A stretch of DNA of 64,000 nt from Microthyrium microscopicum (taxonomy: Eukaryota): contig MU004243.1 of the NCBI GenBank assembly GCA_010405405.1, forward strand, positions 491,340-555,339, read 5' to 3'. The notes under the pieces are model-generated. The model was not told the origin of the DNA. It saw nothing but the letters and a program-made list of their open reading frames with translations, and made no database searches. How positions within the stretch are numbered: the first letter of the stretch is position 1; each line of letters begins with the position of its first letter. The translations under genes were made by a program, and so were the position numbers. Shown piece by piece: positions 11,583-53,820 of the stretch.

Positions 11583-14500
11583 CTACTCTGGCATGCGCTC
11601 CAACTCGGCGTCAATCGCCTGGTACAAGAAATTCTTGCGCTCTCCAGTTAGTTGGCACTGTAACTTCAGTTCTGCGAGCGCAACAACGTGTTTCTTCGTC
11701 ACGCGCTCAAGCTCGACTTCAGACAGGCACTCTCGGACCGCCATGAGGATATCTTGATCAGAGGGACCGGCACGGGGTCCATCCATGAAGTTGATGGTTG
11801 AGCCGGGCCGTTCAGCGCCTAGGAGGTTGACAGAAGAGACTGGGCGCGAGCCGGGCGACATGGCTGGGTACATTGTAGATTGTGGCCGTAGACTGAGATT
11901 TGAGCGTTGAGGATTCATGAGATTATCGGTTGAGTTGGCCATGACGGGATACACTGTAGACGTTGGCCGCAGTGCTGGGTTAGAGATACCACCCAGTGAC
12001 GAGTTACGTCCATGACCGCCCAGTGGAGAACCAAAGCTGGCGCCGCCGAGCGAGTATGTGCTTCCGCGGGCATTAGGACCTGCCATGTAGGGCGGTGCAG
12101 CGAGGCCGCCGCCAAAGTTATGCATGGAGCCGCCGTGCTTGACGCTGGAGACAACGGAGCGGATTTCATCCATTTCCATGGATGGGTCTTCGTAACCGAG
12201 ACCACCGTCGTACTTCTCGGCGTAAGTGACACCTCGGCGGCCGGGAAGATTGTTTTCGGTGGCGTAGTCGTCCCAGCGCATGAGTGGGACAGAGCGAGGA
12301 TCAAAGCCGTCGTCGTGGTCCATGGCAACGACTTTGAGGGCGCCCTTTTCTTCGAGAACCATACGAGTGTTACCCCAGGAGAAGTCGTCTTGTTTCCAGA
12401 AACTGTAGACTGGAAGAACGAAGCTGTAAATGGGGAAAGCAATGATATAGATGATCATCCACCCGATATGTTGCCATTGACGCTTAATGATGAAAATTAT
12501 GGCTTGAAGACCATAAACCGCAGCGAGAATAATGAGCGAGATAAGAGGAAATTGGCCCTTGTGTGATCCAACTTGGTAGAAGAGGTAGCCGAGATAAGCG
12601 CAGGTTGCAGGAAGAATGAGAGTACCGGTAAGATCAATGAAAACGACAAATCTCATACTGAAGCAGCAGAATCCGCACATGTCCTTGATGAAGACCAACT
12701 CTGCAAGATTATGAATGGTGGAGTTGATCCAGCGACGACGCTGCGAAAGTAGAACAGACCAGGTCTCAGGAGCGGCGGTGTGAGCCAGTGCTTGAGGTAC
12801 GAATTTGTAGGACATGTGAGGGAAATGCTTGGTCATCAGAGTTGTAAGGTATCGATCTTCTCCTAGAGATAGAAGATTCTTTTTGTGGAGTGTGTCGACA
12901 TCACCATCACTGTACTCTTCGATAACCTTGTCAGAGATGAGTAGAGGGCGTCCCTTGTCAGCTGTTCGTAGACGGTACATGCAGAAACTAGAAATAGGTT
13001 AGTCTTTGTCAACATGAATTGGAATAGAGATACATACCATCCAGGCAAACAAGTGACACTACCGAAAAGAGATTCGAAAGCTTTGGACAGATGATGAGAG
13101 ATGAAATACTCATAAACTTGAATCATAGTCCACCAACTTCGTTCCTCGTTCTGTAGACTTGTCTCTCCGCAGATACCGGCAATCTTTGCGTCGTTTGCAC
13201 AAGCAGCAACTAGTCGGTTTAAAGAGTCTTCAGCAACCATTGTATCGGCGTCGACCATAAGCGTGTATTCATAAAGTTCAGGGTCTACTCCAATCACGTT
13301 GTTGATCTGATGGAAGATTTCAAGTTCAAGGGGTGACATGGGAGATCTATGGTGAACGCGGTTGAGGAAACTCATGAGCAGAATTTGAGAATCACGCTTT
13401 CCACGATTGCCAGGTTTTGGTTTGGTTTGTTCGGATTCCTTGCCAACCTTGACAACGACGAGATATGGCACGACATTGCCTTCAAATTCGTAGAGACCAG
13501 AGTAAACTTTGCCGTAGTTAAGTTGTTCGCTGCCTTGTCCAACTGACTTGAAGGGTAGTGCCGGTGGGTCAACTTTAGGATCAACACCTAGGATGTCGAG
13601 AACAATCTTTGGGGTTGGACGATCGTTTCCAGCGCCAACAATAACACCATCACAGATAACGCAGATGAGCTTTCGCTTATTGTCGTAAGCCAGACCAGTG
13701 AGAGAATCAAGACCCTTTCTGAGTTGGTCTTCACCTTCAGTGTACGCAGGAACCTGGCAGATGACAAATTTGTCTTGTGGTGATGGACGCTTTTTTGAGC
13801 CTAGCTGGAGGGCCGAAAGGAATTTAATACCAATAACCGAGCAAAGAATGATAGTAAAAGTCAATAGAATGTAGTTGTTGACTTGGCATCGGGCGGTTTG
13901 TCTGAAGTCGGTGGTACCAATATAGAAGTAGTTGTCTAGACACTGTTTGGTATCCACGCGCGATGTTTGATTTCCTCCTGTATTGAATTGTTGTGTGATG
14001 TCGGCTCCGTTGTTAGCGCTTGCAAGATCCGTCATCCATCCCGGAAAGAAAGAGTACGCTGCATTGCCCTTTTGAACCGTGTTGTATGTGTAGAGATAGT
14101 TGGTTATATCATAGACGCTGTTATCGATGATGAACCAGGTTCTGAAGCCAGCCTCTCCTTGTGCACTGATATTGGATTTGGCCCAGACTAGATCACCTTT
14201 GTAAAAAGTTTTCATCTTGGGCAGGAAAGTACTGGTATACCAGTCAATATTATGAAGTTTGCTCCTGGGGTCCGGGGTATTGGGGCCAGAAAGATGTATA
14301 GCCGATGGATTCTGAATAGCACTCGTGTCATTCTGAGACAAAGCTACGTTGACATCAGTGACCAGTTTGGGGCAAGCCAAGGTAAGTGGAGGGTTGATGT
14401 AAGCATCCATATTTAGACCGGCAAATGGCAACATTTGGTCACTCGTGGTCTGAGTATCGGTGTCACTATGCTGAGTTTTCCAGAACTTCGACAGATCGTA

Positions 14501-16957
14501 GACCTTGCCGCGATGACTGACCCAAAAGTCCGTATCTCCTTGATGATAAGAAACTTCTTGTTGGTTCCAAGCTTTGTCCCAGCCAGGACATAATAGTTTG
14601 CCAAAGGCAATGATGTAAAATACGATGATAGCGTTGATGAGGAAGATGAGCATGACAAGGGTGACCTTTTCTCTCCATGCTAGTCGAACGTCTGGTCGCT
14701 TCATACGGCCAACGTAGCGGAGGAGAGGGGAAGGTATCCAAAAAGTTACAGCCCATACAAGGGCAACCCATAGTCGGCGAGTGAAGGGAACGGGACGCTG
14801 TTCAACAACTTTGGCGTCACCCATCTCTGCATCATCAAGGCCTTCGTACGTGACTTCGCCTTTGTATTGATCTCCCTTGTATCCAAGACCATAATCACCT
14901 CCTATGGTTGATCGGCCGGCAGCAGTGGGCGCAAGTGATCCTGGACGAGATTTTCCTCGTGGAACAGTAAGGCCATCTTGGCTGCCTGGAGTTAGCTGAC
15001 CAAAGTAGCCGCCCTCTGTTGGCGGTGCAGTAGAAAAGCCAGTATGCATTGGATCGTTGTTGATAGACGCGTCGAGAGGCAATGCGTCCTTTTGGCACTC
15101 TGCTTCCCACCAGGCAGACTCTCGTAGCCAGATGCGTGACTCTCCTACCACAACTTCACCATTGCTCCAGCCCCTTTCAAGCAGCCAAGTTTCAATGCCC
15201 TCTTTGCCATCTTGACACCCGAGGCGTGAGAATCGCTCGACGAATTCTTGAGGGTCAAAATCGGCGGTAAAATCGAGGTTCTTGTTTCGGCGATTGGCCC
15301 ATTCTGGGAGTCTCCAAGCACGAAGTTGACTTGAAACCGCAGCGGCAGACCAGTGATTGGCAGAGTTTACAAGTCCGGCAGGTGATTCATCGGTGGGGTG
15401 AATATTTAAATGGAACCAGATTCTGCTCGAGTTGAGGGTATTTGAAAGATGGAAACGGCCATGAGCACCAAGTACCACTCCCTGCTTTGTTGGATGAAGA
15501 ATGTCCTTGATATAGGGTCCAGTTTCTGCTCGCTGTGCAACTCGTTCGAGAATTCCTTCGCGTCGGTCTCGCTGGATATCACGCTCTCGACAAGCGGCAC
15601 TGTCAGCATCGTCGAGTTCTGCCGCACACGCAGCGACGGCAGTTCTCATCTCATTGAGGACAGAAGCGCCAGCAGGAACGACAACAACACCATCTTGCTT
15701 CATTTCGGCATTAATGCCTTGAGTGTCGTCAAACACAGTTCGCAGAGCAACAGCCTTTCCAAGATTTGGATCTGGAATATCAACAACGGAAATGGTAACG
15801 GTATCCTCCTGGAGGGCATCCGGTTGAGAGGTCGGGGTGACAGTGCCTGAGCCAGCACTTGAGGTGAATTGATGGCCTGTTTTGATCTCTTTCTTCATTG
15901 CTGCATTCGCGTGTTGGATAACCCAATCCACGATTGCCTCATAAAGTCCGGAAAGGAACACCTCGCGCTCTGATGCGTCGAAGCGGTGGCGCAAAGCATT
16001 TGGATCCAAATCAAGGAGTATGCAAGCATCATCGCAAACGGCTTGAACGGTATCTGCGCTGACGTTGTAATCGACCGTGTCTCCGAGTTTAAGTATTCCA
16101 GCAAGCGCGGATATTAAGTTTTGCAGAGCCGGCCCTTTGATACCAATGGATCGCAAGTTGTGTCTAAAGTCTTCTGCCGCGCCAGCATCATCAGCAGTAG
16201 GCACATATCTGGGAGGGCTGAAGGTTCCAGATCGTCGAAGAATGGAATAAGAGGAGTATGGCTTCAAGTTGAGGACTTCTCGCTCGGCTTTGGATGCTGA
16301 AGGAACATTCAAATAATAGAATACGTCAAATGCCCGGTAGCCTTGTTCAGCCGGAATATGAAAAAGGCCTTTGCCCGTGTCCAGACCAAGTGTTGATAGA
16401 GCGAAACCAGTGTTGAGTAGTTCTCCCTCGGAATTCAAGGTGAATTGTGCAGCTAGAGATGAATACCGCGCATAGGAAGGATTGAATGGCGTGACGGTGT
16501 GTGTAAAGGCACGTATGACTTCGAGTGAAGTAAAGAATGATGATGGGAGGTGTAATGGAAGAGCAGCAGAAAATGCACCAAGCATTGATGGACTCGATTC
16601 GTGAAGAGAACTTTGCCAATTAGTACTCAGAAATCATCTTGTATACTTCCAAACTCACCCAAGAACAACTGTTCCATCTTCTGCTCGCCGCCTGGCGTGT
16701 TGCCAGACTCTTTCGGCCAACTCAGGGTCAACGGTACCGCCGATTCTTCCATCCTCTCCATTCTGAGCTGTGAGCCACGAGTTCACAGCCAAACTGGTGC
16801 TGAACTCAAGAGGATGTGGTAGCGTATTCTGGAAGCTGGTATGTAGAGCATTGAGAAGAGTCTGCGTCGAGACTTGTGCGGATTGTGCATTTTGGCCCTG
16901 GCGTGGGATGTTTGCGTTTGATACACTCGACATTGTCGAGAGTCGGTTGAACGCCAT
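11583..16957 (-). CDS. csmB: Class VII chitin synthase with degenerate myosin motor-like domain, cytochrome b5-like region and DEK_C tail (CsmB/ChsVb type)
   Basis: Starts MAFNRLST...QVSTQTLLNALH...WQHARRRAEDG, a CsmB-type N-terminus. Introns 16611..16658 and 12988..13037. Catalytic GEDRYLT and QRRRW, also [10 protein letters not shown] and a C-terminal DEK_C-like domain. Confidence 0.92.
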
Positions 16958-19247
16958 TGTTATGGATTGTTGGCCTGAGCCAGTGGGCACTGAGCTGTAA
17001 ACCAAAGCTGTAGATATTTTTATGATATATGTGGTTACGAATCACGATGTTGGAAGATGTGATTGTTGTGGCAGGTACAACGGAACCACCTTCCAGTCGG
17101 GTTGGCGGATTTCGAGAAAGGGGAGGAACGAAGGGAGGCGTGACAGCTTGGTACAGCCTCAACGTACAGCGAACGACGAGAGACACGGAATGTATGAGGA
17201 GTAGAGGGATGAGAGCGAGTGAGAATTACGATTAGGTGGAGCACTGGAAATGGCAGCAAAGCGAAAGTCGAGTCTGGAATTACTAGAATCACCGCTGGAA
17301 AGAATTCTCGTGGAGATCACTGAGAAAGCACAGAACGGTATTGGAATCGTTGCACGGCCAGCCTTGAGCGTTGAGCGTAGCGAATGGAGCCGTGCATCAA
17401 AAAAGTGGAAGAGAGATCATCACCACATTACATTAGCGTGTTTCTGGGGCTGCTTTCACGCGCATTCCGTTGCCGGGCAATTGCAGCTGGCATCAGGTAA
17501 GCAAGATCTTGTATAAATTACACTTGGCAGATCCTTTTGGGGAACGCAGAGTCAGATCAAAGGCCAAAGGAGGCGCCAGCCTTCCATCCCAATGTGACGC
17601 CTTCAAGGGTGAAAGAAGCTGGTCCGAAAGCCTTTTGGAAGAAACATGCAACTTGGTGGCCAACCACAACGGATGGTGGTGGCCATGGCGATCGGGAACC
17701 AATAGTGAACCTAGAGCTGCATCAAAGAGGCTGAGTGTACGACAGGGAACGCTGCATATTCAGTGCAGATTTCAGATCCAAAGGGGAAAGGTGAAGGATA
17801 TTAAGGGAGTTTTATCAGGCACAATTACGGGGATAGCTATGCACAGTCTGGCTCTCCCTGTCAATGGTATTTATATTTGGCATGCGGCCCGCATTGTTTA
17901 TTGTTTGCTTGCATAGGGTCCGGTCTATCATTCGTAGAGCATCGCCACTCAATCATGACTCCATGATCCCGACTGGCCCTCGCTAGCAGGGCATCAGATG
18001 GCAATATGTACCAAATTATTGAAAGATACGAAGCTAGTAAAAGTAGCAAAGTCTTATTTTGGACTGGTTGCTGTGGGACGGTTGTGCGGTAGCAGTGGTG
18101 CAGCGCTTTGCGGAGAAACAAGCAGCCCAGATCGTGGATCGTGAATGGCTGCAGCTCTTCAGCAAGCCTCGTACCCGCTTCGGGCGTCTGTGGTGCCGCG
18201 TCGACTGGCATGAAAGCAAAGTGGAACCTCCTTTTCTCTGCGAAAAAGAGTAAAGAGGCTGGGCACGAGCGTGTAATTTTTGCCTTCTTCCAGCCTGTCC
18301 CAAGTCAGATCATTGAGATCAATGCACGGCAAAGGCATTTCAAAAGTCAAATTGGGTCAAACCAACGGCGGGTTGCAGAAACTGCAGGTGGAAAGTGGAT
18401 TTTGGCAATTGTCCGAGTCGTCGTTAAATGCAGGTGGCCTTGGATCGAGACTTGCAAAGAGTTTACGGAATCACGGAATCACGGTGAACTGATTTGCAGA
18501 GGTTGGACAAGCTGGAATTGTGCAGCTCGAGCTCGATATTATCCCGAGTCCCATAAAAGTGTACTCTAGAGTAGTTTGAAGACACAAGCAAAATTGGTGG
18601 TCGAGAAGTTATCCTGGCCTTCTGATCCACTTGTCTGTTGTGCAGGGAAAGACCACCGCCCGCCACTCCCTTACCAGGAAAGAGCGCTGCAGCAGTTGTT
18701 GGTGGTTACCATACAGGGGAGCCGCTTCCCTTTTCGAAGATCGCTCCTGCTACTGCAAGCTTTGGCCTGGCCTGTCGTCCCTTCCTTTCCAAGAATCTCA
18801 CGACTGTTGAATTACATCCCATTTTCACCACCAGATCCACCTCTCTTCTTCGCCTTCGAAGTGCTTCCATTCGCTATCACTATACCACTTCGTGTCTCTC
18901 CTCGCTCCAATTGAGTTCCGTCCCATATTCCCTTCCTCTCGCTTCATTCCACCACTCGCTCATCCCTATACATTCCTCGTCCACAAAGACAATCACGCAA
19001 ACTTTTGGGCCAATTTCAGCGGTACGTGCCATTGGATTTTTCGCGTCATACAAGCTTGCCGACATTATTCTTGTTCGCAACAAGTTTCATATTTGCAACT
19101 TCATGCAGCCTTTCTATACTATATACGGCTGCAAGGCATGGACAAGAACTCTGTCTAACCTGTAAACAGAAGGCCTACAGGGCCAAATTCGATCCCAACT
19201 GATATCGTCCTTACATTCGTTCCCTCCGAGGGGAACCACCAACAACC
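16958..19247. promoter_or_regulatory. Divergent shared upstream region of the two chitin synthases, with a probable 5'-UTR intron at 19022..19169
   Basis: Head-to-head gene orientation and a pyrimidine-rich leader at about 18650-19000. GTACGT donor at 19022, CTAAC branch point and CAG acceptor at 19169. Confidence 0.6.
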
Positions 19248-22200
19248 ATGGCCTCACATCACGGCGATGATTCTCGAAGGCACTCGACTATGCCTTCTTC
19301 TCCCGCCCTCTCCGCACAGCATGACCGTAATGGGCAGCAATCACCGAATTACCAGGACTCAAAACTGCATTTAATACCTAATGTCTCTCCATATCGTGAG
19401 GATGCCGGCTCGCCTTCTGAATTGGGTCTTAACGAGAAATCACTCTCCGATGGCCATGGCGGATCTATTATCGATGGAAAGAAAATGGAAGTTGTCGAAC
19501 GAGTAAAAGTGTCAGGAAGCAGAAAGAGATGGGTATTCTTCGTCTGGCTTGTGACATTCTGGATGCCGACTTTTGTCATTGGATGGATTGTAAAGACTCC
19601 TCGAAAGGATGTGCGCCAGGCCTGGAGAGAAAAACTTGCCATCAACATTCTCATCTGGCTGAGTTGTTCTGGTGTTATATTTTTCATGAGTAAGACATGT
19701 CCTTTTGCCTCTTTGATCTTTAACTAATTCTTGGTAGTTGGATTTCCTGCGTTGATCTGTCCTCGGCAAGATGTCTATTCCTATCAAGAGCTGTCAGCCT
19801 TTGATGGGAAAGGCAACGACAAAGCTTATGTGGCTATGCGTGGTGTCATATACGATCTTAAGGCATTTGTGCCTCACCATTACCCAAACATTGTTCCATC
19901 AACTGCTCTATTGAAATATGCTGGCAAAGATGCGACCAACCTCTTTCCAGTCCAAGTATCAGCCTTATGCAATGGTGTAGATGGTACAGTCGATCCTGCG
20001 GTCCAGCTAAGCTACCAAAACACCAACTATACTGGTCAAAGCGTCCTTGTGAGCACAACGGATCTCAATGCTCAATATCACGACTTCCGAGCCTTCCAAA
20101 ACGACTCCCGTCCTGATTGGTGGTGGGAACAACAGACCACGCTGAAAGGATCTTACCAAAAAGGAAATATTGGCTACACACCACAATATATCAGTACTCT
20201 GGCCAGCAAGTCAAATGTCATCGCGATCCTTTATGGTAAAGTGTACGACTTGACAGCATACGTCGCTGGCGGTCGAGTGCCCAAGTATCCAGTTGGCACC
20301 GACCCACCATCACAGGCACCAAACTCGAACTTTATGGAACCCCTAGTCGTTCAACTTTTCCAGCAAACATCCGGTGGAGATGCGACAAAGTACTGGGAAT
20401 CATTGAGCATAGACTCGGCCTTGAAAGCGCGCATGAAAGTTTGCCTCGACAACCTCTTCTACGTGGGTAATGTTGATACTCGTTCATCAACTCAGTGTTT
20501 GTTCGCCAAGTACATTCTTCTTGCCATCTCAATCTTACTGGTCAGTGTCATCTGCTTCAAGTTTTTGGCTGCTCTTCAGTTTGGCAAGAAGAATGTCCCA
20601 GAAAACCTGGACAAGTTTGTGATATGCCAGGTGCCAGCCTACACCGAGGATGAGGATTCATTGCGTCGTGCTATAGACTCCGCTGCCCGAATGAAGTATG
20701 ATGACAAGCGAAAACTATTGGTTATCATATGCGATGGTGTCATTACAGGTCAAGGCAACGATAGAACGACACCTCGCATCGTTCTGGACATCTTGGGCGT
20801 CAACGAGACTGTTGATCCCGAAGCTCTAAGCTTTGAAAGTTTAGGTGATGGTATGAAACAGCACAACATGGGCAAAGTCTTCTCGGGTCTCTATGAAGTA
20901 CAAGGTCATATTGTTCCCTTCTTAGTGGTCGTCAAATGTGGCAAGCCAACAGAAACCAACAAGTAAGTGCCATTGAGCAGCTATGTCTGATTCGAGACTA
21001 ATACATATTTTTAGGCCTGGTAATCGTGGTAAGCGCGATTCGCAAATGATTCTAATGCGTTTCCTTAACCGAATTCACTACAACTTGCCAATGACCCCCA
21101 TGGAACTTGAGATGCATCACCAAATTCGCAATATCATCGGCGTCAACCCAACTTTTTACGAATTCTGTTTCCAAATTGATGCCGACACTGTTGTCGCGGA
21201 TGATTCAGCCACTCGAATGATCGCGGCTTTTATGCAAGACACTCGACTGATAGGAGTTTGCGGCGAAACTGCTCTTGACAACGCCAAAGCCTCCATGACC
21301 ACTATGATTCAGGTGTACGAATACTACATCTCGCACAACCTTACAAAGGCCTTTGAGTCTCTCTTTGGCTCAGTCACTTGCTTACCAGGTTGTTTCTCAA
21401 TGTACCGGATTCGCGCCGCTGAAACTGGCAAGCCATTGTTCGTAAGCAAGGAAGTCGTCGAAGCTTATTCCGAAAACCGTGTTGATACTCTGCACATGAA
21501 GAACTTGCTTCATCTTGGTGAAGATCGGTACTTGACAACTTTACTTCTCAAGTTCCATCCGAAATACAAGACCAAGTACATTTTCCGCGCTCACGCCTGG
21601 ACTGTGGCGCCAGACAGCTGGTCCATTTTCCTCTCTCAACGTCGTCGATGGATCAACTCAACTGTTCACAACCTTATCGAACTCATTCCTCTACAACAAC
21701 TGTGCGGCTTCTGCTGTTTCTCTATGCGCTTCATCGTCTTCGTCGACTTGCTCTCAACAATTGTTCAGCCTGTGTTGATGGCCTACATTATCTATTTGGT
21801 TTACCTACTCGTTTCGCAAAGCTCTGTCATCCCCATCACTGCCTTCATTCTTCTCGGAGCTATCTATGGTCTACAGGCAATCATCTTCATTGTGCGTCGC
21901 AAATGGGAAATGGTCGGCTGGATGATTGTGTATATTATTGCCACTCCCGTCTTCTCATTTGCACTGCCATTATACTCCTTCTGGCACATGGACGATTTCT
22001 CTTGGGGAAATACCCGAATTGTTACAGGAGAGGCGGGCCAGAAACTCGTCATCTCAGACGAAGGCAAATTCGACCCAGATTCCATTCCAAAGAAGCGATG
22101 GGAAGAGTACCAGGCCGAGCTATGGGAAATGCATTCACAATATCAACAAGATGCTATCAGCCAAGCTGGTTGGCGAGACGACCGTTCCGAAGTGTCAGGT

Positions 22201-22632
22201 ATTTCTTATGGCGCCAAATCGTACGGCGGAGCCATGCCAGGGGCTCCAAGATCAGAAGGGGGTCTTTCATATTCCCGTCCAGCATCTCAACTCGACCTGA
22301 TGCGGTCTGTCAACAACAGCAGGATGTCCCTCGCACCAACAGCATATGGTGCTCTTACTGGTGGCGAGGATCCGAACGCACCAATGCAAAACGTGGAGAT
22401 GTCAGATCTGGGTGCCACAGCGCTTCCAGGCGCTGGCATGCAGTCAGGCGACCAGCCAACAGACGATATGATTCTCCGCGAGATCCGGGACATCTTGGCC
22501 AGTGCGGACCTTATGCGCGTTTCAAAGAAGAGCATTCGCGCCGAACTGGAGAGACGATTCAACTGCGAGCTCACTTCTAGAAAGGAGTACATTGGTAGCT
22601 CAACTGAAGCTGTTTTGAGTGGACAACTATGA
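19248..22632 (+). CDS. csmA: Class V chitin synthase (CsmA/ChsV orthologue) lacking the N-terminal myosin motor domain, about 1094 aa
   Basis: Introns 19690..19737 and 20963..21014. Class V signatures [46 protein letters not shown] and terminal TEAVLSGQL. Only about 94 aa precede the first TM segment. Confidence 0.9.
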
Positions 22633-23630
22633 GTGCTAGTTTTCACGACCAAATCTGCATAGCCTGTCAGCAAACTTTTTGCATTCTTCGTATCTATTTA
22701 CACAAAAATCGGCTAATTGAAGGGGAGTTTGTTGCTTTGGCGCGGTGGATGCTTTTTTATTGGAATGGCTGCATCTTGACGCTCCTTTTGAGATATCGGC
22801 GATACTTTTGCATTTTGACGTATTGTACAGGGAAAAATGTTTCGTAACAATGCATTGTGCTGTATAGAGAAGAACATTTAGTACTACTAGTAGTTAATGG
22901 ACATTGTATAATCTTTCTATTCTTTATTCGTCATAGCTCTGACAGTCAATTTTCCGTATATGGCCAAGTCCTTATCATTCCAGGTATCTGGACGCGCACC
23001 ATGAGGGAGTATTTGCCCCTGACAGCCTTGACAGCCAACCATATTTCCATCATATGCAAAGCTATGGGCATAGGAAATGTTTATTTATATTAACTGGTAC
23101 CTGACAATGGCTATACTTGTAAAGAGGACTTCGTCACCGTCCTGATTTGTGGCTCCAACTTCAGGGCCAGCCCTCCACAAGTCCCACGTTTCGAGTAATA
23201 TATTTCAAACCTGCTCGCAGACCCGCCACAGACCAGCACTTTCTTACGGGAAATATATACCCTAGGCTCTGGAAAGACGGTACTGCCGCCATGACATGTC
23301 TTACGCAGTCCTGCTGGCTGATCTTCATTGAGCGGTCGACTACAACTGAACAATACATATTACGATCGCGATAAGAATCACAGACGTACTGAACTGGTCC
23401 AAGCAGCTCTATATTTTCAAATCCAGAAGGACAGAGCGCGACAGGTCATAATCTTCCTCCCAACAACTCCACTTCTCTAGCTGCTAGACACAGCTCTGGT
23501 TCTCAGGATAGATACATTCGGATGCTATATCGATCTTTGTCACTTCACCATCAGAGAGTGGCCAACGACTCTAGACCGAGACGGATCATCTGAAGTACAC
23601 ACATACAACGTCTCCGGAAGCCACATCAAG

Positions 23631-40954: not shown

Positions 40955-43865
40955 TTGAAGTATGTTGTTGGGTAAAGAATTCATGAATGGAGTGTAGTTA
41001 GGAAGTCGGAGTGATCATCTCTGGATGAACATGTTAGAGCTAGACTTGGATTTTCTGGAGAAGATCTTCCAAGCGCTTGAAATACAGTATAGCTTCCAGA
41101 ACAAGCGGAACGATTCCTGTTGTTGTTTTGATATGCACTTGCTCATGTGATTGTAATTACCTGCCTTGTTCGTTTACCCGTTTCAAGTCCCTCGTGGATT
41201 TGTTTTGTTGGCTGTTCGAAACATATCAACCACACCTTCGCGGATGTCCAAAGTGTTGATGTTCGCCATGTATGGAAGTGGTGGTCTGCTGTAGTTGGAT
41301 ATAACCCCTGGAATCAACATCGAAATTTCCTGATACCTAGAGAAGACCCTGGTTCTTGGACATGGCTAGGCGCGCGCTGGTATGATATAGAACCAGCCCT
41401 ATGTCTATCAGTTCTCACTGCTGCTACTTCCATAAGAGAGATCTGGACATCAGTAATACGGGAGATCTACTGGAATGTCGATCACTGAATACTGCTGCCT
41501 ACAAGGCGATGAAGCAGAGAGGTAGAAGAGGGTCATATTAAACCCAGATCCTCGGGTTGAAAGTCAATGAGGATGTCAAGATAAAAAATATGCCCTGTCT
41601 CTAGTTGATATGCGAGATTGTTAAGGAGGCTCTGCTTGCTATACAAAGGGCTGGACGAGTAAATGAAGTGGGGTTGAATATTCGTTTGGACGGAGTATTG
41701 AAGATCTTTGTGAAGTTGAGATTCACTTCCTTGTAGACATATTGTATATCCTAGAAGTACTCAAACATTCAATGCAGCAGTTTGAATATCATGGATGTAA
41801 ATAGACTGCCAGACTATATGCTCTTTCAGTAGAATCAGGACGCGATAAATTAGCACGCTCAAATGACCAGCCGATATAGGTACTATCAAAGCAGGCAAAA
41901 ATAGCTTGATATGAATACGGGCATATATCATATAGGGGTTCAGTATGAACAATGAGGCTCCTTTAAATAGACTTCACTAACCACAAGCATCCACTTTAAC
42001 GATGGTAGTGGATATCAAAGCAACAGCCAAGCCATCGGTACGCTACGCAGAACAGTTTTCGAACATTGACATCACTTCTTCAACAACGCAAAAAATGAAA
42101 TTATGGAGGAGGTACAAAGGAGTGAATGATGAAGTCATACTTCAGCTGATTTGGGCGACGTCTTGAAACACAGGTCCGAGCGAGTTAGTATTCCTGAGGA
42201 GCAAGCGGAGAAAGGCGTTCGCGCAAAGAGCAAGGCAAGAGTGAAGATCGCAATATGTTTCAGCCCCTAAGTGAACCGTTGGAAAAGGTGTTGGTGGCAC
42301 AGAAAATGTGGTTGAGGAAAATGGGTTTGGCCGACTGCCGAATATAGCGAGAGATCGACAATGGCTTGATTTGCAATAGGGGTGTGCCTTTTAAGCCCCT
42401 GACAGCGAAACGTTTTGATAGTGAGGGGGAGATTTCTGTTCGTTTGACACTGCTTTTATCTCATTGTCCACTGAGAGGTTGGTAGCATGGCATGTATCCA
42501 GACTGGGAAGTTGTGATGTAGATTTATCTGTTGGTGCAGTATTTGGAACCCGAGTCTGCCGATGTTTGCGTGGCTCGGAGCTAAGTTGGACCCTTAAAAG
42601 ACGACGGCGCTATTTTGGAGCAGGCACTACGGTAACTAAATTATGCACATGTGGCTACCGGTACAGGTAAGAGGGGAAATTTGACAGATAGAGTGGAGTA
42701 TCTACGTTCTAACTGCGCGTCGCGGGCGCCCGACTGGCGACTACTTATGACGATATAATCCGTCAGAGTTTCTAGCGTGTCGATGATGTTCAGTTCCACT
42801 ACAAAATACATCTACCTTACTTTTGCTCCCTCTGTTGCTGATGGGGCACGCAATACAATGGGCTACACCGTCTTACCAAGAATCCCTGGCTAGCCTTAAG
42901 TTATAGATGAGTTGTTGGCAGTTTGATAGCGAGATGGGTCGATTTGCAGGCTGCAGTGTCTGGTTCAAGCATAGACTGAGACCTTAATCAGGTTAAGGTT
43001 GGTGAGAAAAGCTGATTAGATAGGATGAAAGTTGCAAAGACCCATGCTGTATGGGCCCGTGGAAAGGATCGACAGCAACGTGATCATATGCTTTGTAGCT
43101 GGCTGCTGGTGTGGTAGGTTGGGGATGGATATCAAATCAGATTTGGCCTGTGATGTATGTTACGAGCTCCAGAGGTCGCGAGGATTGCTTGAGCAGTTGA
43201 AAGAGTATACTGGAGATTATCTTGTAGTATATGAACAACGCTCTCATCTTTATTGAGGAAAGATGTTCAATATCTTAGTTAACTTTCAAATTCATGGATA
43301 TTATACATTGTAGATGGTGGGAGGGGAGGTCTCAAGGATTGATGACAAGGAAAGAGCGACCAGACACGACAGGGATCTTCCATTGCTCCTGCACTTGTTG
43401 TCCACCCCTTCAGCAACCTCCACCAATCCGCCGCCTCGCTCGCTCCCAAGACTCCATAGCACTTGCCAAGCCCTCCAATGTCGCCGCCTCACACCTTCCA
43501 TACCTCCATTCGGCTCGTTGCTTCTCCCATTCATCCAACCCTCTAACCAAAAGGCACGTTTACCATACACTTGAATCCATTTTCCTCCTCTCCGCTAGCA
43601 TTCAAACATCTATCACTGCTACCGCTTCTCTACAACCTTTCATTCTCTTACTGTTCTTTCACTCCTCTCCATCACCCTCCCTGTTTACATCCTGTCCTGT
43701 CCGCCTGTGTGCTCGCGTTAAACACGACCAATATCTACCATCGCCTCATCCCTATCTTCCTCCGCTGCAACGACTGCTCGCTCATCCCTCGATCGTTATT
43801 CGAATCCCCTCTCCATCACTCATGACGCTCAAAGGCATTTGATACTTGTGCCACGATCAGAGGCC

Positions 43866-46800
43866 ATGACGCCCCTTTCTAGTGACACGGCCGATGCCGT
43901 TGCTGCTATCCTTTCCAACATTGCCAAAAACTACGACCCCCACAATGATGTCTCCTTTTCCGGCCAGGTTGTTGCTAATGGCAGCGCTCGCTCGAAAACC
44001 AGTCTGCCAGGCCCCAAATCTAAATCCAGTCTTGCCCTCGAAACCGAGATTAATGCTCTCGTTAACCGGGTACACTACCTCGAGGCGCGCGCTGCCAACA
44101 CGCCAAACTTTCCCATGACCCCTGGCGAGGCTGCACCCGCTCCAGCTTTTTCAAATGACGACGAGGACGAACCACCCAAAATCGTTACCAGCTCTGCAAG
44201 GGAACGATCCTCTTCTCTTACCCATCGAGAGAATGGCTTGACCTTTATAAATCATTGGCTTGCTTCCTCTGAGGATATACTCGATGGCACATCGCAGCCC
44301 ACTGCGCAGCTAACCGCTACTCAACTTGGATATATCCGAGAGCATCTTGGCAAGCAAGCTGATCAAATCAATAACCAACGTCATCAAATCGAGACACTCA
44401 GTGCTGCTGTTACGGAACAAAAGCGCGTGCAGAATACCGCTCTTGACCATGGCATCGAAGACATTGATGCTCTCAAGAGAGAGCTTCAGAAACACCAACA
44501 AGCCAATCTTGCTTTCCAAAAAGCACTACGAGAGATTGGAACCATCATCACTGCTGTCGCCAATGGTGATCTTGGAAAGAAAGTTCTCATCCACGCTAAG
44601 GAGCTCGACCCCGAAATCGCAACCTTCAAGAAAACAACCAATAAGATGATTGACCAACTTCAAGAGTTTGCATCGCAAGTGACACGTTTGGCACGCGAGG
44701 TCGGGACTGACGGAGTTCTTGGCGGGCAAGCTATCATTCCTGATGTTCGTGGTATCTGGGCTGAATTGACGAACAATGTCAATCTCATGGCTGACAATCT
44801 CACCAACCAAGTGCGAGAAATTGCAGAGGTTACTACAGCTGTCGCGCATGGTGATCTTAGAAAGACAATCAAGCGACCAGCCAAGGGTGAGATTCTTGAG
44901 CTTCAACAAACTATCAACACTATGGTGGAACAACTACGATCGTTCGCTACAGAAGTTACCCGCGTCGCCAAAGAAGTAGGAACCGAAGGCGTTCTTGGAG
45001 GTCAAGCTACCATTCCAGGAGTTCAAGGCATGTGGAACGACTTGACTATCAGTGTCAATGCTATGGCCATGAACCTTACCACACAAGTCCGAGATATCGC
45101 GGAGGTTACTACTGCAGTTGCCAAGGGAAATCTTGATCGAAAAGTCGAAGCCAATTGTCGAGGAGAGATTCTCGAGCTCAAAACTACCATCAACTCCATG
45201 GTAGACCAATTACGGCAATTCGCTCATGAGGTTACCAAAATTGCTCGAGAAGTAGGCACAGAAGGCAAGCTCGGAGGCCAAGCAACTGTTCATGGTGTTG
45301 AAGGCACCTGGGCTGACCTCACCGAATCTGTCAACTCCCTATCCATGAACTTGACGACTCAAGTGCGCGAGATCGCGGAAGTCACGACAGCAGTGGCGAA
45401 CGGCGATCTGACCAAGAAGGTACAGGCCAACGTTCAAGGCGAAATTCTCACTCTCAAGAATACCATCAATACCATGGTGGATCGATTGAATGCTTTTGCG
45501 TTTGAAGTGAGCAAAGTAGCTCGAGAAGTCGGAACTGAAGGAATATTGGGTGGACAAGCCGTAGTAGAAAAGGTCGATGGAAAATGGAAAGACCTTACTG
45601 GTGAGAAAAAATCTTGCCTCGCAATTTCTGACAACTAATACCCGATAGACAATGTCAATACTATGGCAAGGAACTTGACCACTCAAGTGCGCAGTATATC
45701 CAACGTCACACAAGCCATCGCTCAAGGAGACATGGGCCGACGAGTCGAGGTTCATGCCCAGGGAGAAATTGCTCTCTTGAAGGATACAATAAATGACATG
45801 GTTGCTCGTCTTGACGCTTGGTCACTTGCCGTTAAGCAGGTGGCGCGAGAAGTCGGTGTGGAGGGTATCATGGGCGGCCAAGCTAATATCGAAGGCATTG
45901 AAGGACGTTGGCGCGAAATCACCGTTTCCGTCAACACCATGGCCCAGAACCTTACATCTCAAGTTCGAGCATTTGGCGAAATTACGACTATGGCAATGGA
46001 GGGCAAGTTCATGCCAATCAATGTCGAAGCCTCTGGAGAAATGGGCGAACTGAAAGGCAAGATCAATAAGATGATATCAAATCTTCGCGACAGTATCGAA
46101 AAGAACACCGTAGCCAGAGAAGCCGCAGAACTGGCGAGTCGCACCAAGTCTGAATTTCTCGCGAACATGAGTCACGAGATCAGAACTCCCATGAATGGTA
46201 TCATAGGCATGACCGCCTTGTCTCTCGATACCGAGCTATCAGCATACCAACGAGAGATGATGACAATTGTTCATAATTTGGCCAATCAACTTTTGACCAT
46301 CATTGACGACATCCTGGACATATCGAAGATCGAAGCTAGACGTATGACGATGGAACAGATCCCGTTCTCTCTCCGGGGAACAGTCTTCAATGCCTTGAAA
46401 AGTCTGACTACACGAGCCAACGATAGATCGTTAAACCTTGTGTATCAGGTGAATGAGAATGTTCCAGACTGGGTTGTTGGAGACTCTTTCCGACTACGCC
46501 AAATTATACTCAATCTCGTCGGCAACGCTATCAAATTCACCGAACATGGCGAAGTTAAAGTCAACATCGCTGAGATTGTAGACGTAGGCTGTGATCCAGG
46601 CGAACACATGATTAAGTTTGCAGTCATCGATACTGGGATTGGCATTCACAAGGACAAGCTTGATCTTATCTTCGATACTTTCCAACAAGCTGATGGATCC
46701 ACCACACGACGATTCGGCGGTACTGGACTCGGTCTTTCTATTTCACGACGCCTGGTCACTCTGATGGGCGGCCACATGTGGGTTGAATCAGAACATGGCC

Positions 46801-47887
46801 ATGGAAGTACATTCTTTTTTACTTGCAAAGTCCGTCAAGGCGACCCCGGTGTCAACGGCATTGCTATTCAACTCGCCCCATACAAGAAACGACCCGTACT
46901 TTTCATTGATCGAGGACGAACAGGCTGCGGAGAGGTCATTGAGAAGCATCTCTCCGCACTGGAGTTCATCCCTCATATCATCAAACCAACAGAAGCAATA
47001 CCTATCCCGGATGCAAACTCCTCCATAACATACGACTGTATCATTGTCGACTGTAATGAAACTGCCCAACGACTTCGTGACTTTGAGAAGTTCAAGTACA
47101 TTCCGCTAGTCATGTTGTCCCCTGCCATATCAGTCAGTTTCCGATCAGCTCTCGAGGACGGAATATCGAGCTACATGTCTACTCCATGTCTAGCAATTGA
47201 TCTAGGCAATGCTTTGATTCCCGCGCTTGAAGGCAGATCTGCTCCTCCGGTCTCGAACAACTCAAAATCTTTCGATATCCTCCTTGCAGAAGACAATGCG
47301 GTCAACCAGAAGCTGGCTGTCCGTATACTAGAGAAATATCACCACAAAGTCACTGTTGCAAACAACGGTCTGGAGGCTTTTGAACATATCAAGAAGCGAC
47401 GCTTTGATGCTATCCTCATGGACGTTCAGATGCCCATCATGGGAGGCTTCGAAGCCACGGCCAAGATCCGCGAATGGGAACTAGAAAACGGCCTCTCGAG
47501 ATCTCCAATCATTGCCCTCACAGCTCACGCAATGGTGGGAGATAAAGAAAAATGCATCGAAGCCAATATGGATGAATATTTGTCCAAACCACTCAAGCAA
47601 AACCAACTCATACAAACCATCCTCAAGTGCGCCACACTAGGAGGTGCGCTCCAACAAGCGCACGAATCTCCTCTGGACTCTGGGTTGCAAAAGCACCCAA
47701 CGCACCCTTCGAGGCCTTCACTGGAAATCCGTGCTTACACTCAACAAGCAGCAGAGAGCCCGGCAATAATTTCCGATGCTACGGAAAATCCAATGGAAAA
47801 GGTTAGGAATCACAGCTCATATATGTAAGGCGGAGAGACTGATGCACATTTTCACAGCTTGTTTTCAGATCACATTCCACTGGTTGA
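43866..47887 (+). CDS. nik1: Group III hybrid histidine kinase with poly-HAMP repeats (Nik1/Os-1 type)
   Basis: Five EVGxxGxxGGQA repeats plus a partial sixth, H-box [17 protein letters not shown] boxes (NAIKFT, DTGIGI, GGTGLGL) and receiver ILMDVQMP. Introns 45601..45648 and 47802..47857, the latter giving the C-terminus LVFRSHSTG. Confidence 0.95.
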
Positions 47888-49655
47888 GCTTGCAACCTTG
47901 GAACTTTTTACAGATCACGCATTTTATGATACCCTCTTTGATACACTTCTTCTTTTCATCTTCTACCTCGTCTTGTGTACATCATGACCATTCTGACTAC
48001 GTTCCGGCTTTGCTGTTGCCAGACAGTTCCAAGCACAACGTTCCCAGGCTGAAGCCGAACATGACTGTACCACCATCTAGATACTCAGCATGATACGAAC
48101 ATCACTGTCCATCGCTTCACCTCTATTGCTTTTTTTTCTACTATTCGGCTATCCTCATGAGCTGGGTGTTTGGAGTACGAACCTGTTTAGCTACACGTGT
48201 AAGGAAGTGTGCGACTTGCTCCTTCGCTTATAACTTTATTTTCTTTTTTTTGTATGGCGGTGGTAGAAGTGGATTTATGTGGGATTTTTTTTCGGGACAT
48301 GACACATCGACTGTGCTTGATGCGGGATGCCTATGCAGTTTTATGAGCAAAAGGCTGGAGAAATCTTAGAATTTTTTACTTCTTGATATCATTGCTGATC
48401 GTCATGCCGTGAGTGAGTGTCAAAGGATGTTGGTGTTGGTGTCTATTTATAGCGGTGATGATGCCCAGCTATTTGCTACTCTCTACAGGCTCCAAGGCAT
48501 ACTCGCTGCTCATACATACATAGAGCATACTACATAGAATGATGGAAGAGAACACTTTTTCTCAGTCAGCCTCGAGGAAGGACCCACTATTGGTCAATAA
48601 TGGCATGTGTGCCAACAGTAACGAGGCAAGTAATTTGTCCGTATGGCCAAATGAGCTTACGGTAATGCCGAGAAGATTGCTGGGGATCTAGGGAAGCGAT
48701 GGAGATCTTTTTAGTGGTAGAGGAGGATCAAAGTTGAGAATACATGCATACTCTACATCTACCTAACACTCTGTTATGCTGGATTTGGTATCATATAAGA
48801 TTATCAGCAATGGGGCTGGAAAGCGGAAACACTCGAGGGCTTTTGGCAGCGAATAGTGGACTTGATGGATGTTTGAAAGGCTCGTACATAGTAAAGGTAG
48901 TAGTATGGAGTAGTACCCTAGAATAGTTGACAGTTAAGGGTGCCTTCCATGTCTTGCATGCATAAGTAGGGTGGTAGGTTAGAAGCAGGTGCAAGCCAGG
49001 ATAATAGAAGCCACAACTTGAAGATGAGGCCGCCTATCGCCTATCGCCATCTCTCCTATCCCAGTATCTACCTTATGTACAATCAGGTAACTACCTTTGT
49101 ATTACGCGAATAGGAATTTTATGCCCATCGTGCCTCCTAAAAGCAGGCGCAGTTTGTGTCCTCAGCAGAGTTGCCTTGTCTACAGTGTTGCTGCTGCACA
49201 GGCATGTCGGTGTGAGTCTGTGAGGCCTTTCGTACATGTTGCTTTCAGCCGTAAATCCCTCCCCTCTCTCCACCAAACACCTCCAAAGTTACAACCATTC
49301 CCATCTACAGCCCATCGCTCAATCTCCCCCTCCATGTACATACACCTCGTCAGCCTGTCCGCATGAAGTTGACCGGATTATTGCCTCGCCTAGACGCTCC
49401 ACGACTGCCACCTCCACACCGTCTAGCCAGTCACTGGCTGGCTGGCTAAACTCAGACTTCACCTGCTTGCCAGTCACTGCGCCGCCAACTCCTTCAAGAG
49501 TTCCTGACTTCGCCTGACCTCGATTCTTCTTCATTCTGCAAAACCTGCAAGCGGCTACAAATTCCATCCCTGTCAACTACACCTTTTCCTAACACGCGGC
49601 CCAAACTCGAGTTTGCCACCTCCTACCACACTGCGAACCTTACTCCACCTACATC

Positions 49656-52600
49656 ATGGCCTCAATTGAGGCGCTCGAGGAAGAGCTTCTCTTCGAGAAC
49701 ACTTTGCTGGAGAGTCTCGACGGACTCTCTGAGAGCGATCTAGAGCAGACATTCGAGATTCAGGAGAGAATCGACAACCTCCAAGCGCGAATCAACATGC
49801 TTCGGCCGTCGGAACACATCACTGTGTCGTCTCTACAGCAAAGCGCAAAACGTAATCGAGAAGCCAGCGATGACCACCTCATGGTCCCTTCGCATCGAGG
49901 CAACAAATCTCAGCGTACCTCTCCTTCTCCAGTCGACGAAGACTACGATGACGACTCTGACGTCGAGAGCCTCCCATCCGACCTGGGCTTCCTTAGAAAG
50001 GGCGTTGAGGGCGACAAAAAGCGCGAATTGATGGAGAGACAACGTCGACGAGAAGAAGAGCTCAAAGCAAAGCGTGACCAGGACTTGCAAGACGCTGCAC
50101 TTGCACGATCGCTAGAGAATGAGAGTCCTCCTCTGAGCACCTTCAGCCAGCGAGTTGGGCAATCAAGTAGGCCTGTTAATAACGCCAACTTGGTTCAGCG
50201 CAATCTCTCTTACAATGGAACTCTGCCACCTGTTCGACAATCGCAACGTCCTTTGCAATCGACCAATCTGCCAATAATTGGAGGCTCGAGATCATCGTCA
50301 AATCCTCATCGCGTTCAGTCCTCTGGCTTTCTTCCAAGCCAAGGCTTCCAGAATGACAATTCTTCGCGCTCAAACCTCTCACATAGCACCTATGCGGATC
50401 CATCGCCTTTTGCAGCTGTGCAACAGGAGCAATTACTTGGTGACCTGGGACAACCTATACATGGGCAAGGACAGCAGTACAATGGACAAAGCCATCAATA
50501 CCCGGGACAAGGGCTTCAGTACGGACAACACCAGACTTTCAGTACTATGGACCGGCAATTCAGTGGCTTTGGGCAGCAGCAGCAGTACGGTGGTCAAGGA
50601 CCGCATTTCAGTTTGCAGAACCAAGGGTTTGATGATCGATCTCACTCGCCTAGTATGAATCTTAATACTGGCTTTGGAGGATATCCCAACTCTGCAGCAG
50701 CGAGCACAAATCAGATGCGCATTAAGTCTGAACATCCCGCGCAAGAGTACACTTTTGGTACGAATAACCAACAAAACAGCCAGAATGCATTCGCCGGTCA
50801 AGGTCACTCGCAAGGTCTAATGCCAGCATACTACACACTTGACAATAGCAGTAGTTCTTCTCTTGAGGAAATCCGACCAGATCAATTCCGACCAAGCAGC
50901 CGTACCCAACATATGGCACCGCCTCAGCAGACTTATGGAACACCCGCTAGCCAATCATTGATGCGTGGCCATAATCAAATGAATAGATCCAGTAGACCAC
51001 TTCCTTGGGCCCCTAATAATGTTAATGCGGTTCCTGCAGGCGCTCCAATGGGCCTCTTGGGCCAGGCTGGTTCCGCGTTGGCGTCTCTTGCTAACGGATT
51101 TGCGGGTGTAGTCAACAATGCTCTCGCATCCCAAGCTCCGCAGATTCCCGACCCTTGGGCTAATGCCTCAATGGATCGCTTAGGATTCTTGTATGCGGAC
51201 AATTCGCGAACTGAAGAGGACATCAAGAAGCTTATGGATAATATTCGACCAGACGAAGATTTACCTCCGGAACTACGCAAAGGAACTCCGGATTCGATGT
51301 CTACAGCTTTGATGGAGCATCAAAAATTGGGACTGACTTGGCTGTCAGAGCGCGAGGAGAAAGTTGGTGCTAGCATTCTTGCTGATGATATGGGCCTTGG
51401 AAAGACTATTCAAACTCTTGCCCTCATGGTTTCGAGAAAATCTGACGATCCGGCTCGCAAGACCAACCTCATCGTAGCACCTGTCGCTCTCCTTCGCCAA
51501 TGGGAATCTGAAATTGAGGAGAAGCTCAACAAGCGTCATGCCCTTTCAGTATACCGGATGCACGGAGTGTCAAACAAGCGAGTCACGTTCAACACCCTTC
51601 GAGGTTATGATGTTGTCATGACCACATACGGTGTTCTCACGAGCGAATATAAGCGTATGCTTGAGTATATGCTTTGGAAGAAGAACAATCCAGGTGGAAC
51701 AACTCCTCGCCCCTCGAAGTTCCACTTTGCTCTTCTGGGTGATGAATGCAAGTGGTACCGAGTCGTTCTTGATGAAGGTCAAAACATCAAAAACAAGTCG
51801 ACAAAGGCTGCAAAAGCTGCATTTCAATTGCAGTCCACTTATCGTCTCGTTTTAACAGGTACACCGATGCAAAACAACATTGAGGAGCTCTGGCCACTTC
51901 TACATTTCTGTAGACTTCGACCCTATAGTGATGAAGCGCAGTTCAAAAAGGACATTTCATATCATCTCAAGGCCACCAACCGATATGGCAGCAAGCAAGC
52001 AATGGAGCGACTTCAGGTTCTTCTTCGCTCGGTTATGCTGCGACGAACCAAGACTTCCACTCTGGACGGCAAGCTACTCATTACTCTTCCAGAGCTTTCT
52101 TCGGATGATACTGAAGTTACTTTTGGAGAAGAGGAAGATAAGTTCTATCGAGAGCTTGAAGAGAAAGCCCAGGTTACGGTCAAGAACATGATAGCGCGAG
52201 GAACATTGGGCAAGAAATACAGCAATGCATTGACACTTCTGCTGCGTTTACGTCAAGCTTGCTGTCACGAGAGCCTGGTCTACTTTTCGGAGTCCGCCCT
52301 GACAATGGCGCGTATTGATGCCGAGCCTGAGATGATGCTCGAATTGGCGAAGGAGCTTACTGCGGACGTGGTTGGTCGGGTAAAGAATGAGCAGGGTGCT
52401 TTCGAGTGCCCAATATGTATGGACGCTTGCGCAAATCCGGCCATTCTTCTGCCGTGTGGTCACTGGACTTGCGGTGATTGCTTTGTCAATTTGCGAGATA
52501 CTTCTCAACAAAACGAGACTGCTGAGGTCAAATGTCCAGTTTGTCGTGGACTGGTGAATCCCATGCGAATCACCGACTTCCAGGCTTTCAAGCAAGTCCA

Positions 52601-53820
52601 TCAACCAGACTTACTTGATGAGGCTGAACGAGCACAACTTCAAATTGATGAGAACTTAGAAGACTCTGGCTCTGACTCTGATGAAGACTCTGACACGGAC
52701 TCGGATGAAGATCCCACCCTGAATGGGTTCATTGTTGCAGATGATCAAGTTGAGTTTGAGGACGATGATGGCGAAGAACGCTCGGAACTCAACGACTTGC
52801 AAATGGGTGGTACCATTGACAACTTTGTCAACGGTCTAAACAAAAAATCCAAGCCCAAAAAGAGCAAGAAGAGCAAAAGCAAGGGTAAGAAGAAGAATTC
52901 TGCTCCTCTGGGGAAGAAGAGTCTTGCGGCGTTGAAGCATGAGGGTATGCGTAATGCTAAAGCACGTAAGAAGTACTTTAAGACTTTACGCAAGATCTAC
53001 AAACCTAGTGCCAAAATCACCAAGACCATTGAGATTGTCCAAGATTTGAAGGCGAACAAACCTCAAGAGAAGATTCTCATCTTCAGTCAGTTCACTTCTT
53101 TATTGGATCTCTTGGAAGTTGGTCTTGATCTAGAAGGCTTCAAGTTGGAACGCTATGATGGAACAATGTCGACTGAGCAACGTGCTGTCGCTGTTGAGAA
53201 GTTTCGCAAGGATCCAGCAATTCCGCTCATGCTTATTTCGCTAAAGGCTGGAAATGCTGGTTTGAATTTGAACTTTGCTTCTCAAATCGTCATGCTAGAG
53301 TAAGTCCCAAAGACCCATTCGATTCATGAGATCTTTGCTAACCACCAATAGTCCCTTCTGGAATCCTTATGTCGAACTTCAAGCTCACGGTCGTGCTCAT
53401 CGTATTGGCCAGCGTCTTCCTGTACAGGTCCACCGTGTCGTCGTTCCGGGAACGGTAGAGGATCGAATTCTCGCCCTTCAGGCGCAAAAGAAGCAGACTA
53501 TCGACCAAGCGCTTGACGAAGGCGCAGGAAAGAGCATCGGACGACTTGGCACTCGAGAACTTGCGTACCTCTTCGGTCTTGATCAACAGGGTCGCGTAAT
53601 GCCTCAAAACTCTTCTTCTCGCGCTTTGCCTTCAACTACGGTAGCTGGACCTTCCAACTCTCGAGCTCTTCCACCGACTGCACAACCAGCTCGCGCTGCA
53701 GCGCCAAATGGAAATCCATTCGGATCCAGCGCGTCAGGCAGTATTGTCCCACGAGCATATGGAAACATTCGAGACTCAAATTCTCGCGCTTCCTCTTCCT
53801 CCACTATGAGCTTTGAATAG
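49656..53820 (+). CDS. SNF2-family ATPase with RING finger (Uls1/Ris1/Rrp-like)
   Basis: [39 protein letters not shown]...CGHWTCGDC...CPVC, and FSQFT. Intron 53300..53351 gives MLDPFWNP. Confidence 0.92.

Follow-up and report, generated by a model that had tools for sequence, protein, structure and literature searches.

Microthyrium microscopicum has a single class V (CsmA-type) chitin synthase gene, which is transcribed and which encodes a protein without the myosin-17 domain. The gene lies on the forward strand of the 64,000-nucleotide stretch of contig MU004243.1 that we analysed (the window; coordinates are counted from its first letter), head-to-head with a class VII gene. We regard it as practically certain that this is a class V enzyme and that its motor has truly been lost. 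As an explanation of the whole, we lean, with restrained confidence, towards an internal deletion that would have removed the motor and left an enzyme delivered as passive cargo, for which the class VII neighbor would provide the tether.

The gene and its class

The coding sequence starts at the ATG at 19248, within ACAACCATGG, and is joined from three exons (19248-19689, 19738-20962, and 21015-22632) that give a protein of 1094 aa, identical to database protein P0001 (Microthyrium microscopicum BT63DRAFT_418327). The first exon encodes a short N-terminus and the first membrane segments, the second a Cyt-b5-like domain (~19782-19958) and the start of the catalytic domain (~20544), and the third the motifs DADT, GEDRYL and QRRRW (the last at 21637), a DEK-C domain (~22456-22602) and the stop codon, beyond which RNA contig coverage marks a 3′ untranslated part at 22633-22902. 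When the spliced protein was searched with Pfam, Cyt-b5 (residues 163-221), Chitin_synth_2 (417-924) and DEK_C (1037-1085) were detected, and Myosin_head was absent at E<=1. A sequence-only reading of this DNA had described a protein of ~1094 aa with ~94 residues before TM1, and both figures hold, with the SRKRW anchor that precedes TM1 ending at W95. The membrane segments and the Cyt-b5-like, catalytic and DEK-C domains are all retained, and the entire myosin-17 domain is gone. The catalytic motifs of class V (the D,D,D,QXXRW set) were found intact, as had been claimed, and the motorless enzyme is predicted, with high confidence, to be active.

To place the protein among chitin synthases, its catalytic core was compared with those of relatives. 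In a 22-row tree it fell within the class V clade, together with motor-bearing class V proteins, with support of 100/100, and a tree forcing it together with class VII was rejected (AU test, p-AU 0.002, with a bootstrap that had not fully settled). Larger trees placed it with proteins of Tothia, Venturia and Trichodelitschia, nested among motor-bearing Dothideomycete class V enzymes. Its terminal branch is ordinary (0.059 vs. a median of 0.055), its core is 85-91% identical to those of six relatives, slightly less than the 87-92% between the Tothia core and four of those, and the core shows no sign of relaxation. The neighboring gene matches both of the class VII motifs taken from PMC4141765 and our protein matches neither, which, together with the AU test, led us to reject assignment to class VII. 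Class IV was rejected as well, on the failed class IV motif and the presence of DEK-C; the genome's own class IV gene sits on C1.

The class VII (CsmB-type) gene occupies 11583-16957 on the reverse strand and is spliced (intron 16611-16658). Its N-terminal domain, of ~710 aa before TM1, is 47-56% identical to those of relatives and gives a weak Myosin_head match, and it has no P-loop. The same head-to-head class V/VII layout was found in metagenome loci of relatives, and PMC5353729 gives the arrangement for 95 species. With a neighbor that carries class VII motifs and a layout shared with relatives, this is the conserved csmA/csmB locus that the sequence-only reading had named, and its class V assignment is upheld by the trees. 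In clade, locus and domain set the protein agrees with class V, and by descent it counts as an orthologue of that class; since the N-terminal myosin-17 domain with its P-loop is missing, it is by architecture neither a myosin-17 protein nor a canonical class V enzyme. Further along the window, a HAMP-repeat hybrid histidine kinase (43722-47828) and a SNF2/RING helicase (49593-53303), both identified by Pfam, are ordinary-looking neighbors.

The motor in locus, genome and transcript

Across all reading frames of the window, no P-loop of the GESGxGKT type was present. A tblastn comparison of the window with N-terminal regions from 51 full-length relatives gave 79 matches in 16900-19700, of which the sole one with E <0.1 was the class V gene's own TM1-adjacent part, so that no motor remnant above chance lies between the class V and class VII starts. 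The earlier statement that the intergenic region holds no myosin-like ORF is consistent with both searches. The two genes diverge from start codons 2.29 kb apart (16958-19247), an ordinary spacing given start-to-start distances of ~1.6-2.9 kb in relatives' loci, which argues that the motor DNA is gone and has not decayed in place.

In the genome, PF00063 gave six matches in four places: a weak one in the class VII neighbor and one conventional myosin each on C1, C2 and C6, which by their motifs we take to be types I, II and V. Of the full-length class V protein P0007, nothing before residue 887 matched the class V gene, and the motor part matched the conventional myosins alone, at 25-26%. Three division-2 chitin synthases were found, namely the class V gene, its class VII neighbor and the class IV gene on C1. 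A split gene or a full-length class V paralogue elsewhere, for which the sequence-only reading had proposed a whole-genome search, was not found by these searches of the 58-contig assembly, and neither was a class V motor. A full-length class V gene might be missing from the assembled contigs, on which the motor search was run, and this would make the present gene a secondary copy; however, the gene occupies the ancestral head-to-head position, only three division-2 genes were found and the search of the assembly gave not even a fragment of a class V motor, and we consider a missing copy highly improbable.

An RNA contig of 4726 nt (X5 record 11) corresponds to 17929-22902; apart from three GT..AG introns it has neither a differing letter nor a gap, and it contains no motor exon. 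Run X5 was presumed to be RNA, and the spliced joints show that it is. Upstream motor exons, which might have been spliced in, are therefore not found in this contig. A DNA contig (X4 record 7) runs unbroken through 17221-19503, with a depth of 968 compared with 1007 and 961 in the flanks, which speaks against a collapse of the assembly at the junction, and the deletion point is crossed with zero mismatches by both the spliced RNA contig and the DNA contig. Runs X6 and X7 gave only small or diverged pieces of the region. The assembly may itself derive from X4, and X5, without a mismatch to the window, may be from the same strain; thus, the two exclude misassembly and hidden splicing, and not a strain-specific deletion.

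By RNA contig coverage, the 5′ leader consists of an exon at 17929-19021, a 148-nt GT..AG intron (19022-19169) that takes out two ATGs and whose joint is seen in the RNA contig, and a last part (19170-19247) with the start context and an in-frame TGA at 19200-19202. This stop codon, already pointed out from the sequence, is not removed by the intron and is present in the spliced leader. The contig makes the leader 1171 nt long, with eight upstream ATGs in 17929-18430 and none after; its last 669 nt when spliced contain 0 ATG, where a mean of 7.25 is expected, and 0 of 1000 shuffles were without one. The stretch at 17929-18430, in which one upstream ATG opens a 119-aa frame, reflects either a long isoform with uORFs or transcription of the promoter region. 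The leader-intron pattern was recovered from the window but from none of the 12 relatives' loci whose start had been located, several of which seem to be transcripts, so that an ancestral start gets no support from it. A separate RNA contig (X5 record 12, 2819 nt) starts at 23006, ~100 nt past the 3′ end of the class V transcript.

An assembly collapse, a deletion acquired in culture or a wrong gene model would also produce a motorless entry, and split gene models do yield false ones in the databases: the short models of a cork-oak entry, of Metarhizium acridum and of Dothideomycetes sp. NU459 are such cases, with motor fragments under the same source names present. Here, however, the junction is spanned by DNA and spliced RNA contigs from two studies, the leader is purged of ATGs, and the same start is seen in two further organisms (P0175 and P0180, described below), so that an artefact is scarcely credible.

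Form and age of the deletion

Residues 28-52 resemble the post-motor linker of class V enzymes (60% over 25 aa to P0002), and in a profile test 4 of 1000 shuffles scored as high; the linker remnant was placed at residues 29-52 (19332-19403). The DSKLHLIP stretch had been read as this linker, which holds, and the protein had been said to begin just after the motor, of which the linker part stands and the simple start probably does not. The first 28 residues of three motorless proteins were pooled, and in a comparison with N-termini of 41 native class V proteins none of 300 shuffles reached their score, as against 31 of 300 when the same residues were set against 32 post-motor segments. Taken by itself, the M. 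microscopicum protein gave no significant match to a native N-terminus (89 of 1000 shuffles as high by profile, and between 125 and 469 of 500 across five pairwise comparisons), and its distance of 36 aa from Met1 to the DSKL motif, beside a median of 35 from motor end to DSKL in relatives, fits a new start right behind the motor equally well. Residues 1-25 (19248-19322), which carry the SSPALS motif also seen in P0175 and P0180, are probably a retained native class V N-terminus, and this likeness suggests an internal deletion rather than a start directly after the motor. We judge an in-frame loss of ~770 codons of the myosin-17 motor to be the likely event, with an approximate junction at 19323-19334, which the DNA and RNA contigs span. 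One such deletion in the ancestor of the clade would have fused the ~25 native residues at the start to the post-motor linker. An unrelated protein, P0084, whose contig is 15.7 kb long, shows a fusion of this kind plainly: it begins like a native class V enzyme (31 bits to the N-terminal profile) and passes directly into the TM1 region. It would represent a separate internal deletion outside Dothideomycetes, or else an artefact of gene calling.

The age of the loss was approached through relatives. A search restricted to proteins of 422-1344 aa returned P0175 (561 aa) and P0180 (560 aa, on an 18.7-kb contig), which are JGI metagenome gene calls, made by machine and compared as proteins, that end at the position of our gene's second intron. 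Both can be aligned with the M. microscopicum protein from Met1 (70-71% identity over 556 aa), have no myosin domain and share with it MAS...SSPALS and the SKF/L linker motif. In the tree, the three form a 98/94 clade with P0003, which carries no N-terminal information, and P0011 and P0002, both of which have the motor, join immediately outside it, inside a 100/97 clade. Because two relatives with the same motorless start are grouped with our protein in this way, the loss appears to be old and to belong to the lineage rather than to be a strain defect, and its simplest reading would be a single event in the ancestor of this clade; the clean evolutionary deletion proposed from the sequence holds, and the loss is shared with at least P0175 and P0180. 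P0415, considered as a motor exon of P0003 because their contigs are similar in length, was not shown to be one, and a 50%-cluster search returned no closer relative.

Of the 119 relatives listed, 111 have PF00063, among them every one of the 45 named NCBI/nr models, and the remaining eight are unnamed or metagenome gene calls. A scan of metagenome DNA found motor sequence upstream in 23 of 24 loci, the 24th being a C-terminal fragment, and no motorless relative among the 24. In Table S2 of PMC5353729, of whose 368 DEK-C rows 258 were covered (203 from Pezizomycotina), 6 of the 203 are without PF00063, and the sole CsmA-type entry among these is from Ophiocordyceps (1014 aa, on a 3.6-kb contig). 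The Pezizomycotina rows of that table label the ~1850-aa CsmA-type as class 7 and the CsmB-type as class 5, opposite to usual practice. Short entries of Ophiocordyceps and Pseudogymnoascus were set aside, as their contigs are only 3.6-4.6 kb. Four further short class V models, P0121, P0123, P0125, and P0133, from Aulographum hederae (KAF1992534.1), Meristemomyces frigidus (KAK5135643.1), Peltula (KAI9789398.1), and Phylliscum (KAI9828241.1), occupy separate branches and come from contigs that range from 128 kb to 1.3 Mb, with the Peltula and Phylliscum models sharing a start at an internal linker Met and being sisters (100/100). Among the 120 of 421 matches listed, none was a motor fragment under the name of any of these four. 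Since three short models were exposed as split genes, the four are candidates only, and offer a hint of repeated motor losses.

The remodelled short N-terminus might also be a new targeting signal, binding an adaptor or the membrane, with sorting like that of the motorless class IV synthase. The SSPALS and DSK-L motifs are conserved between relatives ~70% identical, and P0175, P0180 and the unrelated short P0121 have a lysine-rich run before TM1; our protein, however, lacks the run, and the N-terminus is mostly poorly conserved (35-37% over the aligned part), which makes such a signal improbable. The run lies directly before TM1 on two separate branches and is possibly a convergent membrane-binding patch.

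Delivery of the enzyme and comparison with known systems

According to PMC4425547, kinesin-1 still transports CsmA from which the motor has been removed, but such CsmA does not accumulate at the tip membrane, and according to PMC3252574 the Mcs1 motor is a vesicle tether, not a transporter, whose loss drops membrane insertion from 14.8% to 8.5%. In these accounts long-range transport is motor-independent and the motor tethers at exocytosis sites, so that the step lost here would be tethering or cortical capture; the former source still calls the role of the motor domain after transport unsettled. The sequence-only reading had proposed a different delivery route, which was overstated, because its transport part is at odds with both papers, and the missing tethering step is what remains of it.

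The genome contains many kinesin matches (kinesins as a whole) and one type V-like myosin. We propose that the motorless enzyme would reach the growth zone as passive cargo of kinesin-1/myosin-5 vesicles, that the step lost would be capture on cortical actin ahead of exocytosis, and that the class VII neighbor, on the same vesicles, could supply this capture in trans via its motor-like domain. On the last point we are evenly divided. According to the review PMC7389182, glucan synthase travels together with the class V and class VII enzymes in Ustilago, and according to the review PMC9865612 a chimera of the CsmB motor and the CsmA catalytic part restored the wild-type growth rate, but hyphal abnormalities and lower conidiation remained. 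A title cited in PMC4425547 states that the CsmA and CsmB motors are not equivalent, CsmA and ChsB are reported in separate vesicles (PMC9865612), and motorless CsmA is not at the tip membrane despite the presence of CsmB in A. nidulans (PMC4425547), which argues against rescue in trans by class VII in that species.

The same deletion may instead have gone without a substitute tether, a less efficient and less polar secretion being tolerated or even used, for example for the thickening of lateral or septal walls in slow growers. Pfam detected no compensating domain, and the other candidate short models come from one rock-inhabiting fungus and two lichens, lifestyles that we presume from their names. 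Motorless Mcs1, moreover, is still inserted at about half the rate (PMC3252574, values above). However, motor deletion is harmful in the species examined (PMC4425547, PMC7389182), the catalytic core shows no relaxation and the other short models are candidates, so that we rate this alternative as possible but unlikely, and retain passive delivery with a class VII tether as the preferred reading. As a more speculative extension, which we hold to be doubtful, myosin-17 might have been deleted several times independently in Pezizomycotina (in the present clade, Aulographum, Meristemomyces, Lichinomycetes and the fungus behind P0084), mostly among slow growers of surfaces, rock or lichens, where the P-loop-less class VII domain would be the sole actin tether and would carry class V, the reverse of Ustilago.

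A literature search, with most subscription journals outside its coverage, found no description of a naturally motorless CsmA-type enzyme from Pezizomycotina. PMC5122149 describes superclass V enzymes as "often" having a motor and as variable in length, so that motorless division-2 enzymes as such are already known, and our protein was already in public databases, its motor loss uncommented. What is new here is the apparent lineage-level loss common to two metagenome relatives and, probably, the native-like N-terminus that points to an internal deletion. The motor domain is regarded as class V-defining and as needed for placement and function, and class V enzymes are discussed as antifungal targets (PMC12653383). 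A natural lineage that has kept the conserved enzyme minus the motor indicates that the requirement is not universal, and provides a natural test of the motor's purpose, including whether class VII tethers in trans and whether fast growth at the tip comes at the price of a motor. Classification based on domains would misfile such genes.

Compared with the class V (Va) enzymes CsmA of A. nidulans, CHS5 of Zymoseptoria, Chs5 of Exophiala and Mcs1 of Ustilago, the M. microscopicum enzyme has the same clade, Cyt-b5-like and DEK-C domains and head-to-head class VII gene, and is 64% identical to Zymoseptoria CHS5 over the shared length, but it has 1094 aa and no myosin domain, whereas CsmA-type proteins have ~1850 aa and the 45 named relatives all carry PF00063. 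Class IV enzymes (Chs3/ChsD type) likewise combine Cyt-b5-like and catalytic domains without myosin, but differ in that our protein fails the class IV motif and has DEK-C. In Ustilago, Chs6 is itself presumably without a motor. This class VII enzyme depends for delivery on its partner's motor in shared vesicles (PMC7389182), and there class VII rides on class V, whereas the M. microscopicum enzyme would ride on a class VII protein whose motor-like domain lacks ATP-binding motifs. The closest likeness in architecture, a linker remnant followed by the membrane and catalytic part, is to the laboratory alleles CsmA deltaMA and Mcs1 deltaMM; these are engineered mutants described as defective (PMC4425547, PMC3252574), whereas the same form is here the sole class V enzyme, fixed in a natural lineage.
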